The notes under the pieces were generated by a model that saw only the letters and a program-made list of their open reading frames with translations, was not told the DNA's origin and did not search any database. Made by a program: the position numbers and the translations under genes. Below, in pieces: positions 6,653 through 62,434 of a stretch of DNA of 64,000 nt. Within the stretch, counting starts at the first letter, position 1. Every line of letters begins with the position of its first letter. Source of the DNA: an uncultured Nitrososphaerota archaeon (lineage in GTDB: Archaea; Thermoproteota; Nitrososphaeria; Nitrososphaerales; CADDZS01); assembly GCA_963799845.1 (NCBI GenBank), contig CAWCYI010000004.1, positions 704,001 through 768,000 on the forward strand. Reading direction: 5' to 3'.

Positions 6653-6786
6653 TTCTCGGCGGCACTTCGCTGACTTCAACGTGAGAAAGGCATTCTTTTC
6701 TGCGCGAGCTCCACTTTCAAAAAGCAAGCTTACACAAAATAGTCGTTACTTAAAATCCAGAAGCTTGCGATGATTTATTCCTAATC

Positions 6787-6997
6787 GTTCTTTAAATTCT
6801 AGCTCTCATTGATTCATAAAGAAAAAAATTTTCTGCGTTCGCACAAGGGGAGCTGTTTTCTGAGTGAAGAGCTCGAAACGAGCTTTGTAAGCTCAGAAGA
6901 GCTTGAAACGAGCTGAACGGAGTCTAGAGAGCTCGATTCTCATTGAACGTGCTTGCATTGTCCCTCCTCATTGAGACGAAAGACATTTTCTTGAGCT
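6787..6997. repeat. Dispersed intergenic element, copy 1 (44-bp block plus phased AGCT array)
   Basis: 6787-6830 matches 59097-59140 at 38/44; tandem GAAGAGCTYGAAACGAGCT at 6866 and 6896. Confidence 0.75.
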
Positions 6998-7035
6998 GAG
7001 AAAAACGGTGCAAACAGAGAATTAGGTCCTGAAAG

Positions 7036-14325: not shown

Positions 14326-16263
14326 TTACGAATTCAATGTATCCACAATAATTTTCGCAAGCTTCTCGCTTATCTTACCAACTTGTGAAATTTCTTCGAC
14401 CCCTGACCTCCTCATTGCTTCGACCGAACCAAAATGCGCCAGCAGGTTGCGTTTTCTCTTTTCTCCTATTCCTGCAATTTCGTCAAGTTCTGACTTGGTG
14501 ACGTGCCTTGATCGCAATTTTCTGTGATAAGTGATGCCAAATCGATGCGCCTGGTCCCGAATATGCTGCATGATATGCAATGCCTCGGAATCCTTTGACA
14601 ACTTGATTGGGCGAACTCTTGTGGGAGTAAAGATGAGCTCCTCTTTCTTCGCCAGCGCGACTGTTGGTATCCCAAAAATTCCGTCGGTGTGCATCTGGTT
14701 TATAGCCGCATTCAGGTGCCCCTTGCCTCCATCAATTACGACCAGATCGGGAGGATCCTTCGCCCATCGTCGCCCTTCGGCGTTGGTCTCAGACAATCTC
14801 TTGAACCTACGGCTGATCATCTCTGCCATCATCGCGTAATCGTCAATTCCCTCGACCGTCTTGATTTTGAATTTCCTGTACTGGTTCTTTTCTGGGAATC
14901 CGTCTACGAAGACCGTCATCGCCCCCACGGCTTCATCCCCGTGAATGTTGGAAATATCGAAGCATTCGATCCTCCTCGGTAGGTGATCGAGATCAAGCTT
15001 CTCCTTGATATCCTTGAGGGCACGCAATCTTTCCCTCTTTTTCACGTCTTCTTTGGATTCTTGTTCTTTCAGAACCAATAGTGCATTGTCCTGCGCCAGC
15101 TTCATGAGCCTGCGATTTTCTTCACCCGAAGAAGCGGAGATGAGCTTCACCGTCTTTATCGGCTCTTCTGCGTCCCTATTCATTTCGGTCCGAGCGACAC
15201 CCTGAATGAGCGCTTCAATTTCTGCTGAATCCGGCAGTTCGATTGGGACAACTATCTCACTCGGAAATTGATGCCCAACCATTGCCTCTGTGGAAGAATA
15301 ATGCTGTTTTATGAACGCCGAAAGAATTTCCAAATCTTCAACTTTCGCGCTTACCACATCCAGAATATATTTTTCGCGCCCCACCACATTTCCTTCCCTT
15401 ACCTGAAACACAATAGCCGCGGCTGTATTACTCTCCGTATTCTCTTCCGCATGGGTCTCTCTCGCGATTGTCACTACATCCTTATCACGGTCCTTCTGGC
15501 TGGGAAAAGCTATTCTTTGCTTCAAGGCCGTCGCCTCGAGCGATCTAATTTCATTTCGAATTTTGGAGGCTCTTTCGTAGTCCTGCGACTCAGAAGCTTT
15601 CCACATGTCGTCATACATCAGCTTTGAAAGTTTGACGAGCTTGCCCCCCAGGAATAGCTCGAATTTCTTTACGTCGCTGAAATACTCTTTCTGAGTAACG
15701 GCGAAAATGCAGGGAGCTTTGCAGAGACCGATATTGTAGTCAATGCAAGCTTTGAATTTTTTTTCCCAATTTAGTGGAAGTGTGCAACCTCGGATGGGGA
15801 ATATCCTCCTAAGGTACTTTACTGTTCTCCTGGCAGCTCGTGCGTTTCCATAGGGCCCAAAGTAATGAGATCCGTCATCTTCTACCCGCCTAGTAACAAG
15901 GACGCGCGGCACTGCATCTGAAGTGATTTTGATGTATGGATAGCTCTTGTCATCCTTCAACCTTATGTTGTATTTCGGCTTGTACCTCTTGATCAATACG
16001 TTTTCGAGAATGAGCGCTTCGAGAGGTGACTGGTTGAAAATATAATCTGCGCTTTTGATCTGAACTTTGAGGCTCTGTCCTATCGGATCGTCGAATTTCG
16101 GGCGAAGATGCGCGAGTACTCTTCCTTTGATGCTGGTTGCTTTTCCAACGTAGACAGGACTTCCCTCCTCATTTCTAAGGATGTAGACTCCCGGCCTTTC
16201 AGGAAGCTTGTCAAAATTATCCAGTGGAGTTGAGATCGCTTCTTGCAGTGATAGGTTCAACAA
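14326..16263 (-). CDS. uvrC: Excinuclease ABC subunit C
   Basis: GIY-YIG (PGVY..VYVGKA), [30 protein letters not shown]-terminal HhH. Confidence 0.96.
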
Positions 16264-45693: not shown

Positions 45694-46834
45694 CTACCCT
45701 TGAATAAATTCGTGGGCTTCTTGCTTCCTTGACTGAAACTTGCTGATCCGTGTGATCAGTAGAGGCTCTGTCTCCACAAGGGACTGCTCCAGTCCCAGCT
45801 TCAGGTGATTGCGAGCTGCGTTCACGTCACGGTCCAGTTCAAGACCACAACGCTCGCAATGAAACACTCTGTCCTTCAGAGTGAGTTTCGTCGGCGAGAG
45901 TCTATCCGCATCTAGAGCATTTCTGCGAACTGCCAATGGGATTGACGAGTAAGACTCGCCCGCTACGCCTTTCTGCCTTGTAAGCAGTCATTACGCGTAG
46001 CTTCCCCCAGGTGGCATCCAATATTGCTGATGCGAGATTGTGGTTTCTCACCATGTTCAGAATCTTCAGGTCTTCGAATACAACCAACTTGTTCTTCCGA
46101 GCAAGGTCATTCGAAAACTTATGGCAGAAGTCTTCCCTCTGTCTCCGCACTTTTCTCCACGCCTTGGCGAGAACGATCCGTGCCTTCTCCCTGTTCTGAG
46201 AAGCCTTCTTCTTTCGTGAAAGCTTTCGCTGAAAAGACTTGATTCTCTGCACACTCCCCTTCAAGTAGCGTGGGTTTTCTATAAGGGTCCCATCGCTGAG
46301 AGCTGCTACACTCGAGATCCCAACATCCACGCCAATTTTTCCATCGGAGCATTTCACAGTCGGATTGGATTCGTCGACGAGCAGTGCCACGAACCACTGG
46401 TCGACGTCCCGGATAACGGTCACACGCTTGATGACGCCGGAGATTTTTCGGTGTAGCACAATCTTGATCTTCCCAATTTTGCTCAGGTAGATCGTGCCAC
46501 CTTTCAGCTTGAAGCCGGATTGAGGATAGGTGAAGGAGTTGTAGCGACCGTATTTCCTGAACCTCGGATACTTCATCAGCCCTTTGAAGAATGCTTGGAA
46601 CGCCTTGTCCAGTCTCAGGGCTACGTCCTGCAGGACTTGGGAGAATACAACCTTGAGATATTTATTGTCCCGCTTCAAAGGCACGAGCTGTCTTTTCTGT
46701 TGGTAGAATCCAGTCCGATTCTCATTCCGATCCGCAAGAAGATTGTTGTATAGACGCCTGCATGTTTCAAGAGTCTCGTTGAGGCTTCTCTCTCGTTGCG
46801 TGCTTGGATAGATCCTGAACTTGTAGGTGATCAA
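45694..46834 (-). CDS. tnpB: TnpB RNA-guided nuclease (frameshift near 45905)
   Basis: YKFRIYP, GVDVG (RuvC I), VFEDL (RuvC II), CSRCG/CERCG Zn ribbon, DRDVNAARN (RuvC III) in the shifted frame. Confidence 0.9.
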
Positions 46835-47229
46835 ATCTCTTTCTGCTCTGCAATGTATTGCTTGATCGTGTCGAATGAGACGTGTCCGTGTGTTGAAACA
46901 AAGTAGCTTCGACTCCAGAGAGTAGGAAGCCGGGTTGCAAGTTCTGGGAATTCCTTTCTGAGCTCGTGGGAAGTATGACCCTTGAGAGCCGCGATGATCC
47001 GGTTTGGTGCGATCACCGGAGTAGCCTGGATGAATAGATGCACATGGTCAGGCATTATTTCGAGTGCGATAATCTTGCAGCCGAGAGCATCTGTTTTCTC
47101 TTGAAGTAAAGCTTTGAGTCGAGCTTCAACTTTTCCAACGAGAACCTTTCGCCTGTATTTGGGGCACCAGACGAAGTGATAGTTCATGAAGTGAACTGAA
47201 GTCTGGGAAGGGAGATAGCCCCGTGGCAC
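46831..47229 (-). CDS. tnpA: IS200/IS605 Y1 (HUH) transposase
   Basis: YHFVWCPKYRR, DHVHL, LWSRSYF, YIAEQ. Confidence 0.93.
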   Translation of the reverse strand: MPRGYLPSQTSVHFMNYHFVWCPKYRRKVLVGKVEARLKALLQEKTDALGCKIIALEIMPDHVHLFIQATPVIAPNRIIAALKGHTSHELRKEFPELATRLPTLWSRSYFVSTHGHVSFDTIKQYIAEQKEI

Positions 47230-47287: not shown

Positions 47288-48465
47288 CAGTAGTTGCGAA
47301 TCAAGTATGCTTTCCTCTCATGTCAAATGACTTGTTCATTATTAGACCGATGAGATAGAGTTTCATTTGGATTACTTTGATCGATACATAGTCATTCGGA
47401 TGGAGCAGCTCTCGATCGGCATTGTACATGACCCACGCGTTGTATACAAGACATGCAAAGAGATAGTAAAATAACCTTACCACGTAGTTCCTTGATGTTG
47501 TTTTATCAGGAATTGATTTGACATCCGGTAGCTCGTCTCTATGCCCCAACGATTCTTGAACAATCTCAATACTGTCTCAGCTTTGTAGGGAAGATTGGTT
47601 GCAAACAGGTACTTGTAATCCTTTGATTTGTCGTAGACCACGACCACATCAAATGACGTTTGTTCGGACTTTCTTCTCCTGTGTCCACTAGTCGTGTATG
47701 TGAATCTCCTGCCATTCCAGAGCCTCATTTTCTTTGTGCTGTAGGTCGGAGCCATTCGGACGATGTACTTGAGTCCAGATTCCTCAAGAAATCTCAGGAA
47801 GCCTGTGCTAAGGAATCCACCGTCAAACACCAAGTATCGAATTCTGATTTCCAGCTCTTCTCGCAGTTTTCGCACAATTTGTTCGGCAGATGAAGCAAGT
47901 TCCGCAGCTGATTCTAACCCTGTAACAGCTACGATCAGTCTTTCCCCATCTACCAGAACAGAAGCTGTAAGATACTTGAACGCATAATTGCTTCCATCTC
48001 GGTGCATGGTTCCGATGACCATCGGTGTTTCTTCATGATCGCCGTAATACATGACATCGTGCAGATCCACCGCTACGGGGACTGGAAGTCGTAATTTCCG
48101 TCGTTTTCGGAGCTTCTTTACATTCATGTCTACCAAATCATCGAAGATTCGTTTGAGCCTCTCTTCTCTTTGTGATTTGATGTACGAAAGAAGAGTTTCT
48201 GCTGTCGGTGATTCGTCTAGAGACTTTGAAACACCTTCTGCAAACCCATTCACCAAGCTTGCAGAAATAAGCAGTTTTAGGTGATCGGCTTTTGAGTAAA
48301 TGGCTCTCTCCTTGAGGTCGTATGTTAGCAATCCTGAGATACTTTTCTTCACGAATTCATGCAGCTTTCTTGAATTGACCTTCAATGAATGTCGGAAAGA
48401 AGCCCTAAGGCACGCTGGCCATAATAATTACGGCCGAAAACGCTTGAATTCATTCGCATCTACTG
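47288..48465 (-). mobile_element. ISH3-family insertion sequence
   Basis: IRs CAGTAGTTGCGAAT / ATTCGCATCTACTG (13/14); 4-bp duplication TGAA at 47284-47287 and 48466-48469. Confidence 0.85.
47301..48385 (-). CDS. ISH3-family DDE transposase (frameshift in A-run near 47502)
   Basis: VAVDLHDVMYYG, FDGGF, RWGIETSYR, then KTTSRNYVVRLFYYLFACLVYNAW in the shifted frame. Confidence 0.85.
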
Positions 48466-58947: not shown

Positions 58948-59096
58948 TGAGTTAGACTACAAATTAATGCCAACTGCCGATAAGATAAACTAAACGGCGT
59001 CCTTTCTATCCCGAATACCTTGGTTAATTGCCTTCCTGTTTGTGTAAGAAACTCACGTTATGGTGTCAAAATGTCAAAGCGTACACTGAGGTTCCG

Positions 59097-59560
59097 GTTC
59101 TTTTAATACGAGTTCCCATTGTTTCATAAAGAAAAAAATTCTGCCGTTTCGCAACCGCGCGTACATTTTGACGGGAGAGCTACATTCAAGCTCTGTTAGC
59201 TCAGAAGAGCTCGTTTCGAGAGCTCGTAACGAATTGAACGGAGGCACAAGTAAGTTGATTGAGAGATTACTCGACAATTGTCGAGTTGATCGTTTCATAT
59301 TGGATTTTCGAGGATGTTCTGGAAATTTTAACCGATATACCAGATCATTGCTCGAGAACTTTAGCCTGCAGATCTGAATTTTCTCTACGTTCTGCACAAG
59401 CGCATACTTTTTTGGCCGAAGAGCTTGTTTCAAGCCATTATAGAGAGGGGGCCCCCTAGAGGAGTTCTGCAACCGTGCACGTGTGCGCAGAAGATTGCTT
59501 TCTACCAGATCGTTTCAAGTTGTTCAATTGAAACAGCGTGATTTAGCTATTTAGCTCAGT
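59097..59560. repeat. Dispersed intergenic element, copy 2, with further degenerate subunits
   Basis: 59097-59140 matches 6787-6830 at 38/44; AGCT array 59178-59224; motif variants at 59422 and 59507. Confidence 0.72.
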
Positions 59561-59748
59561 CAGGGCTCAAAACGGCGCGAGTTTTCATAGTCAAGAAAAA
59601 AATGTTTCAAAATGGTAGGTCTCGCTTTGAAATGGATTCGTTGTTTCAACGATAGATACTTGTCGAGATTCCCGACTCGAGCTTCCCTTGCTCACACTTT
59701 GAATAAGTTTAAGCCACTGCCAAAAACAACTAAGGGAACGGATCCAAA

Positions 59749-60909
59749 CTGACAAAAGTCTCGAAGAAAGCCGCACAGTTCACTGAATCTGTCATCAGGG
59801 AGATGACGCGCCTCGCCGGTAAGCACAAAGCGGTAAACCTCGCCCAGGGATTTCCTGACTTTCCCTGCCCTGAAGAACTAAAGATTGCCGCGGCCAGAGC
59901 GATTGACGAAGATTACAACCAGTACTCAGTTACTTGGGGTGCTCCGGTCCTCAGAGAGGCTATTTCGAAAAAGGCAAAGAAGTACAACAAGATTGATTCC
60001 GATCCGGAAAAAAACATCGTAGTGACGTGCGGCACGACCGAAGCTATGGTTTCAGCCCAGCTGGCAATCCTTGATCCCGGTGAAGAGCTGATCGTTTTCG
60101 ATCCTCATTACGAGAACTATGCGCCTGACGCGATAATCTCGGGGGCGAAACCGAAGTACTTAGAACTCGATCAGGAAAATAATTTTGCACTAGACGAGGA
60201 GAAATTGAAACAGGTCTTTAACTCAAAGACCCGTGGTATTGTGCTCAACTCGCCACTGAATCCAACTGGAAAAGTTTTCGACAAAAAAGAGCTGAACTTA
60301 ATCGCCGATCTCTGTGATGATTACGACACCATCTGCTTCACCGATGAGATTTACGAGTATATACTCTACGGCGGCGCGAAGCACATCAGCATCGGGAGCC
60401 TCCCATCAATGAAAGACAGGACCGTTACGATAAGCGGTTTCTCAAAAACCTACAGCGTCACGGGGTGGCGTGTGGGCTACATTATCGCAAACGCCGAACT
60501 TACCAACGCGATAAAGAAAGTCCACGACTTTGTTACAGTGGGCGCTCCCCATCCTCTCCAAATAGCCTGCGCCACAGCCCTTTCATTCCCACAGTCTTAC
60601 TACGACCAACTGAGGAGCGATTACGACGAGAAAAGAAAGATGCTTCTGAAATCGCTCGAATCCATTGGTTTCTCGTGCGTTGACCCCGCAGGAGCCTACT
60701 ACATCTGGTCCGACTTTTCTGAGCTAGACCGAAAATCCGATGATCTTGAATTTGCGAAGAACCTTGTGGAAGATGTCGGGGTCGCTGCGGTTCCCGGCTC
60801 CTCGTTCTATTACAAGAGCAACCATGGTAGGAAAAAAATCAGGTTCACTTTCTCGAAGAAAATGGAAACTCTGCAAAAGGCGTGCGAAAGATTAGAAAAA
60901 TTAAAGTGA
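59749..60909 (+). CDS. Class I/II PLP aminotransferase (YbdL/kynurenine aminotransferase-like)
   Basis: NLAQGFPDF, NPTGKVF, DEIY, SKTYSVTGWRVG. First ATG is 59803, but the open frame extends to a CTG at 59749. Confidence 0.9.
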   Translation: MTKVSKKAAQFTESVIREMTRLAGKHKAVNLAQGFPDFPCPEELKIAAARAIDEDYNQYSVTWGAPVLREAISKKAKKYNKIDSDPEKNIVVTCGTTEAMVSAQLAILDPGEELIVFDPHYENYAPDAIISGAKPKYLELDQENNFALDEEKLKQVFNSKTRGIVLNSPLNPTGKVFDKKELNLIADLCDDYDTICFTDEIYEYILYGGAKHISIGSLPSMKDRTVTISGFSKTYSVTGWRVGYIIANAELTNAIKKVHDFVTVGAPHPLQIACATALSFPQSYYDQLRSDYDEKRKMLLKSLESIGFSCVDPAGAYYIWSDFSELDRKSDDLEFAKNLVEDVGVAAVPGSSFYYKSNHGRKKIRFTFSKKMETLQKACERLEKLK

Positions 60910-61040: not shown

Positions 61041-62434
61041 TTATTGTCCAGAGGTAGTTGTTGTAGTTGTACTGGTGTCTGTTGTTGTTGCTGATGTCGT
61101 TGTGGTGTCGGTCGAGGATGTTGAGGATGTAGTTGTGCTTCCGGTCGAAGTTGTTGCAGACGTTGTGGTGGCGTCAGTTGTGGATGAGGTTCCCGATGTG
61201 GTTGTTGCGCTCGTCTGACTCGAGGTGCTGCTCGAAGTCGAAGTTGCCGAGCTAGTAGATGTTACGTGCGCAGTAGTCGAACTGGAAGTTGTGGTCGCAG
61301 ATCCGCTCGCCGTTACTGCCATCTGCGCGTGTTCTCCGCTTCCGAGAACGGTTACTATGTACTTCTGTCCCGCAACAATGCCGTGAGTAGGAGTATGTCC
61401 CTGCAACAGTGCGAGTGCTCCTATCGTGACCCCTCCATTGTAGGTGAACGTTGCGCTAGATCCCGGCGCCAGTGCGAATCCCGACAGTGCTAGAGTCTGG
61501 ACGGTTCCTTGCTTGGTCGATGCAGATAGTGCAAGTAGATTTCCGTTCGGCGCTACGACGAAGAACTCTGAAATCTTGGATACAGGTCCGAGTGCGGTAC
61601 TGGTACCCATCCGCCGCTTGGAGTGGACGTCGAGGTGACTGCGACCATCCGGAAGATGATTGTCGCATTTCCGGTGTTATCCACTGATACGCTGACAGAG
61701 TTCGGGCCGAGACTTGCTCCAGTGAGCTGGAACCTCGTCATGTACCATATCGCTGCAGATACTCTGTTATTGTAGTCGTTTCTGTCGCCTACGTGTGGAT
61801 GATTTGCGATGGAGTTTGCTGGTAATGTGTATCCAGTAGCCGCTGGGATGAAGGCGAATGTTGGATCAGTGGTGTTCCCCAATAGAAGAACCGTCGGGGT
61901 CATGTCGATCATTGCTCCGGTCGTCTGTCCGTCGCTGATGACTATTCCTCCTGGGATCCAAACGTATAGTGTGTGCTCCTGGTAGACAAGATCTGCCGTG
62001 TAGTTGGTTCCTTGGAATGTGACAACCGCCGAGGTCACGTTGAATCTCAGTCCGTTGAACTTTCCAGAGGTGATGTTGGTTGAGGCAATGGTCTGGCTCT
62101 CGTTGACTATGCTCATGAGGTTGATTTCGCCCGATGTTTGCAGGTCCGTCCAACCCGTTTGGTTACCCGCGTCGGCGAAGTGGACTTCGATGCTGCTGTA
62201 GTTGATGTAGACTGCTGTTACGCCATCCGGCACTGTTGGTGGGTCCGTCATCAGAACCGCCAAAGTCCCGGATCCGCTCGGTGCATTCGCGCTGGAACTG
62301 CTAGTACTTATCGAAGTGCTAGAAGTTGAACCCTTGTTCACAAGTCCAGGCGTGAACACTACCGCGCCTATCAGCGCCACCGCAATAATAGCTGCGAGGA
62401 CGCCAGATACGATTACTTTGTTTTTCGTAGACAT
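61041..62434 (-). CDS. DUF4382-like secreted protein with Ser/Thr-rich tail (frameshift near 61592)
   Basis: TM anchor; GTLAVLMTDPP..P.GVTAVYI.YSSIEVH DUF4382-like start; two ORFs join by adding one C. Confidence 0.72.

Follow-up and report, generated by a model that had tools for sequence, protein, structure and literature searches.

An AGCT-phased intergenic element of a Nitrososphaerales-like archaeon: one copy of a probable interspersed hairpin-repeat superfamily

The window analysed here is the whole stretch of 64,000 nucleotides at positions 704,001 to 768,000 of contig CAWCYI010000004.1 (C4), part of the genome of an uncultured Nitrososphaerota archaeon (GCA_963799845.1, hereafter G000; 4.60 Mb in 9 contigs, 47–48% G+C, 86.7% complete). 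The interval 6653–7035 of the window contains no open reading frame (ORF) of 40 amino acids or more and carries a dense cluster of the tetranucleotide AGCT, with 12 sites at positions 6707, 6727, 6762, 6801, 6851, 6870, 6881, 6890, 6900, 6911, 6930 and 6994; the core sites are spaced by 11, 9, 10 and 11 nt. A second array, with AGCT at 59178, 59189, 59198, 59208 and 59221 (spacings 11, 9, 10 and 13), is present in the same window, and the blocks 6787–6830 and 59097–59140 are identical at 38 of 44 positions. The cluster, its 11-9-10 spacing, the second array and the shared block had all been pointed out in a first-pass annotation of this DNA, and a recount reproduced each of them exactly. The genes beside the two sites code for a membrane protein with 12 transmembrane segments, an ABC ATPase, a pyridoxal phosphate enzyme and an aminotransferase.

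AGCT occurs 275 times in the window (4.3 per kb), corresponding to an expectation of 1.25 sites per 291 bp. The Poisson probability of at least 12 sites in such an interval is about 1e-8, and the runner-up 300-bp intervals hold 7 and 6 sites; the cluster is real and far beyond chance. The second-richest stretch, with 7 AGCT (15587–15886), lies inside a 645-aa ORF (14326–16263, minus strand) and outside the repeat family described below. Rfam searches of the window gave no matches at gathering thresholds and only chance-level matches (E 3.6–8.9) at lenient ones. The array was not reported by Tandem Repeats Finder in the window. A 33-bp tandem repeat at 61086–61186 (3.1 copies, 67% match) is located inside a 189-aa ORF without a Pfam match (61041–61610, minus strand).

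The following features were assigned in the window.

6786–6949, plus strand: complete short-form copy of the element (copy 1), with head, variable segment, AGCT array and tail (nhmmer match C4:710786–710949, model positions 2–165, 150.9 bits)
6790–6798, plus strand: TATA-like box 1 (CTTTAAATT), upstream of the invariant box and at the same position in copies of G000 and of a congener
6807–6815, plus strand: CATTGATTC box, the best-conserved motif of the superfamily (ATTG and two further T invariant in a cross-genus alignment)
6816–6832, plus strand: AT-rich stretch (ATAAAG, then A7T4), from copy alignments
6833–6865, plus strand: variable segment of subtype T3, a homologue of P0, the short T-rich-loop stem found in related genomes
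6866–6949, plus strand: AGCT array and tail, made of reiterated units of about 30 nt with AGCT-centred arms and a terminal CATTGAACG (from repeats, conservation and folding)
6696–6770, plus strand: degenerate upstream fragment with AGCT at 6707, 6727 and 6762, tentatively assigned from weak repeats to copy 1
6965–6997, plus strand: partial second head-like repeat (CTCATTGA..GAAAGACATTTTCT) with AGCT at 6994, from a direct repeat (6821–6834 / 6978–6991, 86%) and reading of the sequence
59097–59545, plus strand: long-form copy (copy 2), with the same head, a shorter AGCT array and further conserved modules (nhmmer match C4:763097–763241)
59377–59442, plus strand: internal second unit of the long form, a variable segment and AGAGCT hairpin without head (match to model R2, model positions 37–101; also nhmmer match C4:763377–763435)

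The 12 sites are thus divided among three separate pieces, the complete short element with eight, the degenerate upstream fragment with three and the downstream head-like repeat with one; the number given in the first-pass annotation holds, whereas its description as a single array does not. Copy 1 is scored at 148.6 bits by a covariance model built from 34 copies (R1) and is matched over 6789–6947 by a broader sequence-only model (R2). The fragment 6696–6770 is not matched by the family models; it is related to copy 1 by a weak direct repeat (6696–6707 and 6856–6867) and by an inverted repeat of 73% identity (6705–6726 / 6854–6875).

The short form of the element, about 165 nt long, begins with a TATA-like box, followed by the box (C)CCATTGATTC and an AT-rich stretch with an A/T tract at its end; CTGCGTTTC, the variable segment, TTTTTGGCCGAAG, the array and CATTGAACGG come after the tract. 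Among copies, TATA-like box 1 varies (TTTAAAT, TTTATAT, TTCAAAT or TTAATTA), the A-to-T junction of the tract moves (A7T4, A2T8, A6T5), and the variable segment, of about 15–25 nt, occurs in three sequence subtypes. The plan common to copies has four parts: the CATTGATT box, the AT-rich TATA-like stretch, the variable segment and the hairpin AGAGCT-N7-AGCTCT. The array consists of about three tandem units of 30–31 nt, whose consensus sequences are identical at 20, 21 and 25 of 31 positions; in copy 1 this is evident as a 19-nt direct repeat (6866–6884 / 6896–6914, 95% identical, 30 nt apart). The number of units differs between copies, resulting in runs of 4, 5, 6 or 7 phased AGCT. The bases flanking AGCT in the array form RAGCTY hexamers. 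The idea of a "polylinker" was rejected, palindromic hexamers being merely about twofold enriched (11–21 versus about 9 expected).

The long form comprises about 450–560 nt and occurs at about a dozen loci, 11 long copies having been aligned; BLASTN with 59090–59780 found at least ten loci with 370–480 nt in common. It carries, in addition, a 16-bp palindrome CTCGACAAT(T/C)GTCGAG, a duplication of TTTTCGAG, another unit lacking the head and the palindrome GGGG(G)CCCCC. In copy 2 the array is followed by the CTCGACAATTGTCGAG palindrome, TTTTCGAGG, the second head-less unit and the GGGGGCCCCC palindrome. A small peptide encoded by the long form was considered and rejected, because the reading frame of the window copy is disrupted by an indel of 8 nt.

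Searches of the whole genome revealed that both window copies belong to a large family. BLASTN with 6780–6960 and with 59090–59780 produced 66 and 69 alignments, respectively, with 70–92% identity. An nhmmer profile built on the 166-nt core gave 123 matches, including 50 primary matches (at least 50 bits) that merge into 48 loci. The suggestion of the first-pass annotation that the array may belong to a family like repetitive extragenic palindromic (REP) sequences or miniature inverted-repeat transposable elements (MITEs) is borne out by BLASTN, nhmmer and R2 as regards dispersion, with dozens of scattered intergenic copies in both orientations and further members in relatives; its MITE part fails, as neither terminal inverted repeats nor target-site duplications were detected.

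Helical phasing of AGCT is confined to this family. The genome contains 133 clusters of at least five AGCT per 150 bp and 38 phased runs (at least four AGCT spaced 8–12 nt) against 0.2 expected by chance, 37 of these 38 being located in family DNA. Inside the family, the distances between AGCT sites show peaks at 9–11, 19–21, 30–31 and 40–41 nt. Such peaks, and hence the 10-bp periodicity whose genome-wide presence the first-pass annotation had proposed to examine, were not found in intergenic DNA outside the family, and in coding DNA AGCT shows just a 3-nt rhythm; the genome as a whole shows neither avoidance nor enrichment of AGCT (observed/expected 1.16), with roughly 20,000 sites outside the arrays. 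Restriction of the phasing to family DNA indicates that it is a property of the family by common descent and not a general rule for AGCT, and the regular spacing results from reiteration of stem arms as tandem stem-loop units. The idea of a one-off chromosome landmark, presented on one helical face, is therefore not upheld. That the locus belongs to a repeat family whose phasing arose by common descent and internal duplication is close to certain.

The copies are intergenic almost throughout: with crude ORF calling, 44 of the 50 primary matches overlap no ORF, and the other six touch either a short ORF (five cases, 107–174 aa) or the edge of a 368-aa ORF (one case). The flanking genes of 49 matches are arranged in tandem with the copy co-oriented (17) or opposed (15), convergently (11) or divergently (6), and no protein family is encoded next to more than three of 48 loci. 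Copies are distributed along both large contigs at about one per 80 kb. From reading of the table, copies on C4 are mostly on the plus strand before about 1.1 Mb and mostly on the minus strand after it, which may be chance; their orientation roughly tracks a weak turn in cumulative GC skew. Short-read contigs from four DNA runs labelled soil metagenome pile up and break at the repeat, and no joints were seen; the pile-up is as expected of a multi-copy repeat, and the presence of the family explains why short-read assemblies break at such sites.

Besides the array-bearing copies, the genome harbours a second subfamily (B) of 22 copies that have the same head and a single AGAGCT-N7-AGCTCT hairpin. 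Subfamily B copies (for example C4:1714797–1714897 and C6:617540–617634) seem to have direct repeats of about 13 nt (GTACCYGCAGACC) at their borders, about 300 nt apart, a hint of some larger unit or of a recombination site. A tRNA-like sequence with an undetermined anticodon was called by ARAGORN at C6:81828–81924 and ends about 30 nt before a long-form head (C6:81954). Genome-wide, nine tRNAs were called by ARAGORN without intron settings, and none was found in the window.

The superfamily is restricted to relatives of this archaeon. A DNA search of 41 genomes detected the element in five, all of one genus. The models R1 and R2 were then applied to 13 genomes of the taxonomic family, all of them incomplete assemblies. 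R1 yielded 60 matches in G000, 32 in the congener G003, 3 in G004, 2 in G005 and 1 in G012, and none in the eight other genomes. With R2 (E ≤ 1e-4) the element was detected in eight of the 13 genomes: G000 (93), G003 (51), G004 (21), G012 (7), G002 (4), G005 (4), G006 (1) and G011 (1); copies are weaker in the six beyond G000 and G003, and five genomes gave no matches. In a loose scan of species genomes for the head motif, most of the at least 80 loci listed are single chance matches in AT-rich bacteria, and of nine listed loci tested with the family model six were confirmed, all of them from Nitrososphaerales archaea. Viral contigs gave no matches to the array motif.

Common to all lineages are the CATTGATT box, the AT-rich TATA-like stretch, GCAAC, P0 and a hairpin (H1); the CATTGATTC box was found in copies from G002, G004, G005, G011 and G012. 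The long phased array of about three tandem hairpin units is an elaboration seen in G000 and G003, shorter runs of 3–4 AGCT occur in G005 and G006, and copies of G004 and G012 carry only 1–2 AGCT. Comparison of 20 G003 loci with G000 showed that nine share a syntenic site, at least two are filled in G003 but empty in G000, and nine could not be placed. Positional orthologues are 68–89.5% identical, between flanking genes that are 82–88% identical, and are not mutual nearest relatives (rank 2 to 29), so that the pattern of similarity among copies is star-like.

Several lines of evidence suggest that the feature maintained in these elements is pairing within one strand. The array of copy 1 is predicted to fold as plus-strand RNA into a long imperfect hairpin (−32.1 kcal/mol, z −2.68); the corresponding values are −24.5 (z −1.94) for minus-strand RNA and −16.8 (z −2.35) for DNA. 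In the 34-copy array subfamily, the named helices pair in 90% of cells. When the structure P0+H1 was applied to 21 diverse copies, 73.5% of cells were paired, compared with 27–41% when the partners are slid. Both-side changes occur in six of its 12 pairs, including four of the six H1 pairs; one H1 pair, for example, is G-C in 14 copies and C-G in three. In G004 copies, the AGCT array is replaced by an unrelated stem of 9–10 bp (AGAGCAATG/CATTGCTCT). P0 is a clear stem in copies of G002, G004, G005 and G006, and in 12 of 13 copies from these genomes it is more stable on the plus strand owing to G·U pairs. Thus, the motif is not the feature conserved across relatives: distant copies retain stems, with compensatory changes, and lose AGCT, which points to selection on single-strand pairing rather than on the motif and also counts against the landmark proposed in the first-pass annotation. 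Selection on such pairing is rated as somewhat better than an even chance.

Based on these data, the locus is regarded as belonging to a lineage-specific superfamily of hairpin repeats scattered between the genes of soil Nitrososphaerales-like archaea; the probability of this explanation as a whole is put at roughly 0.55. AGCT is the self-complementary core of each stem arm, and arm plus loop gives the spacing of 9–11 nt, a length that happens to approximate one helical turn; in G000 and its nearest relative, reiteration of the hairpin module has produced about three tandem units of 30–31 nt. The selected property would be base pairing within one strand, most likely in plus-strand RNA. Such an RNA could be initiated close to the A/T tract by the TATA-like head of the element itself, or be part of read-through transcription of an adjacent gene, and it may act as a stable stem-loop module in the manner of REP sequences and bacterial interspersed mosaic elements (BIMEs). 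Copies would spread by duplication or by enzymatic mobilisation, and may double as landing sites for insertion sequences (IS) of the IS110 family.

The promoter-like head was compared with the upstream regions of the genome. In 684 such regions, taken from crude gene calls, TATA-like hexamers peak 30–45 nt upstream of ATG starts, with TAAATA enriched 6.7-fold. TATA-like box 1 (CTTTAAAT, CTTCAAATA and similar) resembles these hexamers, suggesting a putative promoter role; given the usual geometry of archaeal promoters, transcription would then begin close to the A/T tract. Copies of G004 and G012 have not conserved the box, and there are T-runs downstream on the plus strand. A small RNA transcribed from the element's own promoter is possible but rather doubtful.

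A number of observations weigh against the hairpin-repeat explanation as formulated above. The array of copy 2 shows no unusual folding on the plus strand (z −0.18), the array subfamily contains no pair changed on both sides, with shuffles matching the data, and RNAalifold found no consensus pair in the 21-copy cross-genome alignment. The covariation score of P0+H1 (0.169 versus 0.122 ± 0.019) is reached by 7 of 500 shuffles, which according to the caveat of the tool is within the range for related sequences without structure. The array helices give no strand signal, G·U and A·C being about balanced; the variable segment in the G000 array subfamily folds no better than shuffles (mean z about 0.1, compared with −1.1 for P0 in subfamily B); one stem-loop is flipped among copies (AGCTTGAAACGAGCT versus AGCTCGTTTCAAGCT); and the loop-less palindromes (GGGGCCCC, CTCGACAATTGTCGAG) fit duplex DNA better than they fit RNA. 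Conservation is 94.6% in AGCT columns and 82.5% in spacers, as a motif-reading protein would also predict; this difference is expected under both pairing and motif reading. As for the spread of copies, no terminal inverted repeats were detected beyond GTTC..GAAC at some copy ends, the inverted pairs being internal. Target duplication was not evident in 18 full-length copies (longest shared flank word 3.28 versus 3.00 ± 0.21 in shuffles), and no mobilising enzyme was found among the Y1 transposase genes or the neighbours of 48 loci.

The genome encodes two Y1 transposases, both in ordinary IS605-like units with unrelated ends. One of them is located in the window (46843–47196; Pfam Y1_Tnp, E 6.5e-41), and no family sequence is present beside its unit. 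This IS200/IS605-like unit (45902–47229, minus strand) comprises the transposase gene and an abutting 310-aa ORF (45902–46834); the second transposase is encoded at C6:729242–729595. A link between this window unit and the repeat family was considered and dropped, there being no sequence relation and no family DNA beside the unit. The adjoining 302-aa ORF (47477–48385, minus strand) may be a mobile-element gene. No autonomous IS with the same ends as the family was found, and no transposase gene recurs beside its copies.

Two copies of the repeat are themselves interrupted. At C6:336645–339016 a 2.4-kb IS is inserted in the A/T tract of the head (joints 336644/339017). Its 374-aa protein contains the Pfam domains DEDD_Tnp_IS110 and Transposase_20, and the element has no sequence in common with the repeat family; a partial copy, 99.6% identical, is present at C4:1287262–1288773 outside any family copy. 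In another copy a 570-bp non-coding insert (C4:886298–886868, joints 886297/886869) occupies the same position of the head. Its termini (GGTTTTGT... / ...CAGAACC) resemble those of the IS110-type element, and the insert may be a non-autonomous IS110 derivative. Bacterial REPs are reported to be insertion targets of IS110-family elements (PMC1525189, PMC12288879, PMC11208160), a parallel to the insertions seen here.

The host is an archaeon by its gene content: TBP and a eukaryote-type topoisomerase IB (E 7e-73) are encoded, and a search of the genome for sigma-70 region 2 found none. Among archaea this topoisomerase is a hallmark of Thaumarchaeota. AmoA was not found in the genome (86.7% complete), and the control genomes were likewise without a family match. 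The genome contains 12 matches to the N6_N4_Mtase family of DNA methyltransferases (for example C8:12182–12838, C6:437066–437809 and C4:214462–215238). The methylation background invoked in the first-pass annotation is sound: orphan methyltransferases producing N4-methylcytosine (m4C) in AGCT are described as persistent in Nitrososphaerota (PMC10609329), and 82–91% of AGCT sites are given as modified in two marine Thaumarchaeota bins (PMC8919816).

A rival explanation is placed at the level of duplex DNA: RAGCTY motifs phased on one helix face would be bound cooperatively by a protein, possibly an m4C reader, and the roughly 50 loci would serve as epigenetic or architectural landmarks. The spacing of 9–11 bp with its multiples, the conserved AGCT columns and RAGCTY flanks, the G·U and A·C symmetry of the array, the loop-less palindromes, the persistence of orphan m4C AGCT methyltransferases in Nitrososphaerota and the 12 N6_N4_Mtase matches all agree with it. 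However, the phasing is limited to one repeat family and is accounted for by tandem units, distant members hold the stems with 1–2 AGCT and compensatory changes, and the arrays are embedded in elements of 170–600 bp whose CATTGATT box and AT tract are conserved at least equally. Such a platform is improbable. Its most specific version, in which about 50 intergenic arrays with 5–9 RAGCTY each on one face are read by a protein sensing orphan m4C methylation of AGCT, is slightly less probable still; stem-loop symmetry would then be a by-product of the palindromic site.

An unlikely alternative, although a better one than the duplex platform, is that the repeats are purely selfish non-autonomous DNA with no function for the host and an incidental promoter-like head. 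They would be mobilised in trans as single-stranded hairpins, like REP with its associated tyrosine transposase (RAYT) or IS200/IS605-derived elements, or by another recombinase. Many dispersed copies with star-like similarity, the G003 loci that are empty in G000 (at least 2 of 20), the mosaic structure with variable unit numbers and the slight under-representation of copies in divergent promoter regions (6 of 49) are consistent with selfish spread, and the conserved non-palindromic box adjoins the hairpins as at substrates of HUH enzymes. Against this stand the lack of terminal inverted repeats beyond GTTC..GAAC and of target duplication, the residence of both Y1 genes in unrelated units and the absence of any gene recurring beside copies. 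In addition, a constraint that still operates is suggested by the uneven conservation of columns and by compensatory changes, and identity between copies at shared sites reaches 89.5% in species whose flanking genes are 82–88% identical. Decayed coding sequence, the end of a known IS or an assembly artefact, the first two of which had been named in the first-pass annotation as outcomes that would overturn it, are largely refuted. A 132-aa ORF (59074–59472, minus strand) does overlap copy 2, and short-read contigs do break and pile up at the element; but this ORF matches no Pfam family, no ORF of at least 40 aa is present in copy 1, indels between copies are not multiples of three, copies do not adjoin transposase genes, the family is present in eight separately assembled genomes, and pile-up is expected of any multi-copy repeat.

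The repeats are interspersed hairpin elements that resemble REP/BIME functionally but lack the associated transposase, and they are not MITEs. Interspersed hairpin repeats of the REP, BIME and BOX kind are well studied in bacteria; a full-text literature search found none described for Nitrososphaerales. The REP and BIME sequences of enterobacteria and pseudomonads are extragenic imperfect palindromes, present in many copies and both orientations and assembled from mosaic modules with units of about 35 nt. The archaeal family resembles them in its extragenic location, dozens of copies in both directions, stem-loop palindromes, mosaic modules and use as IS110 insertion targets. It differs in its archaeal host, in the size of its units (about 165 to 560 nt versus about 35 nt in REP), in the conserved non-palindromic CATTGATT box, the TATA-like head and the AGCT arms at 10-nt spacing, and in that a REP-associated tyrosine (Y1/HUH) transposase flanked by repeats was not found in the genome. 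The bacterial BOX, enterobacterial repetitive intergenic consensus (ERIC) and Correia/NEMIS elements are intergenic repeats of 100–200 nt, with a variable number of boxB modules in BOX and terminal inverted repeats in Correia. The present family is likewise interspersed and modular with a variable number of units, predicted RNA folds and sometimes promoter-like sequence; in contrast, it has no sequence relation to them and no terminal inverted repeats, and it is limited to one archaeal family. No archaeal BOX, ERIC or Correia/NEMIS elements are known as far as the literature was searched. With MITEs, archaeal ones included, it shares short length, non-coding character, multiple copies and presence or absence between related genomes, while a search for terminal inverted repeats, duplicated target sites and a matching autonomous IS found none. 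The family offers a marker of a little-known soil lineage that apparently does not oxidise ammonia, and it supplies natural target sites for an archaeal element of the IS110 family, the bridge-RNA type.

The clusters of GATC read by SeqA in E. coli offer another parallel, as methylatable palindromic tetranucleotides placed about one helical turn apart. The AGCT clusters differ in being homologous copies of one repeat with stem-loop symmetry, and their AGCT content is not conserved in distant members. The approximately 50 defined loci, with dense clusters of the orphan-methylation motif of the phylum, nevertheless make the function of m4C in AGCT directly testable; if the methylation-reading platform were true, they would be repeat-borne epigenetic landmarks for nucleoid organisation, replication timing or segregation. 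Under the hairpin-repeat explanation, which is preferred here, they provide an example of a helically phased motif array that arises simply through reiteration of a stem-loop unit.

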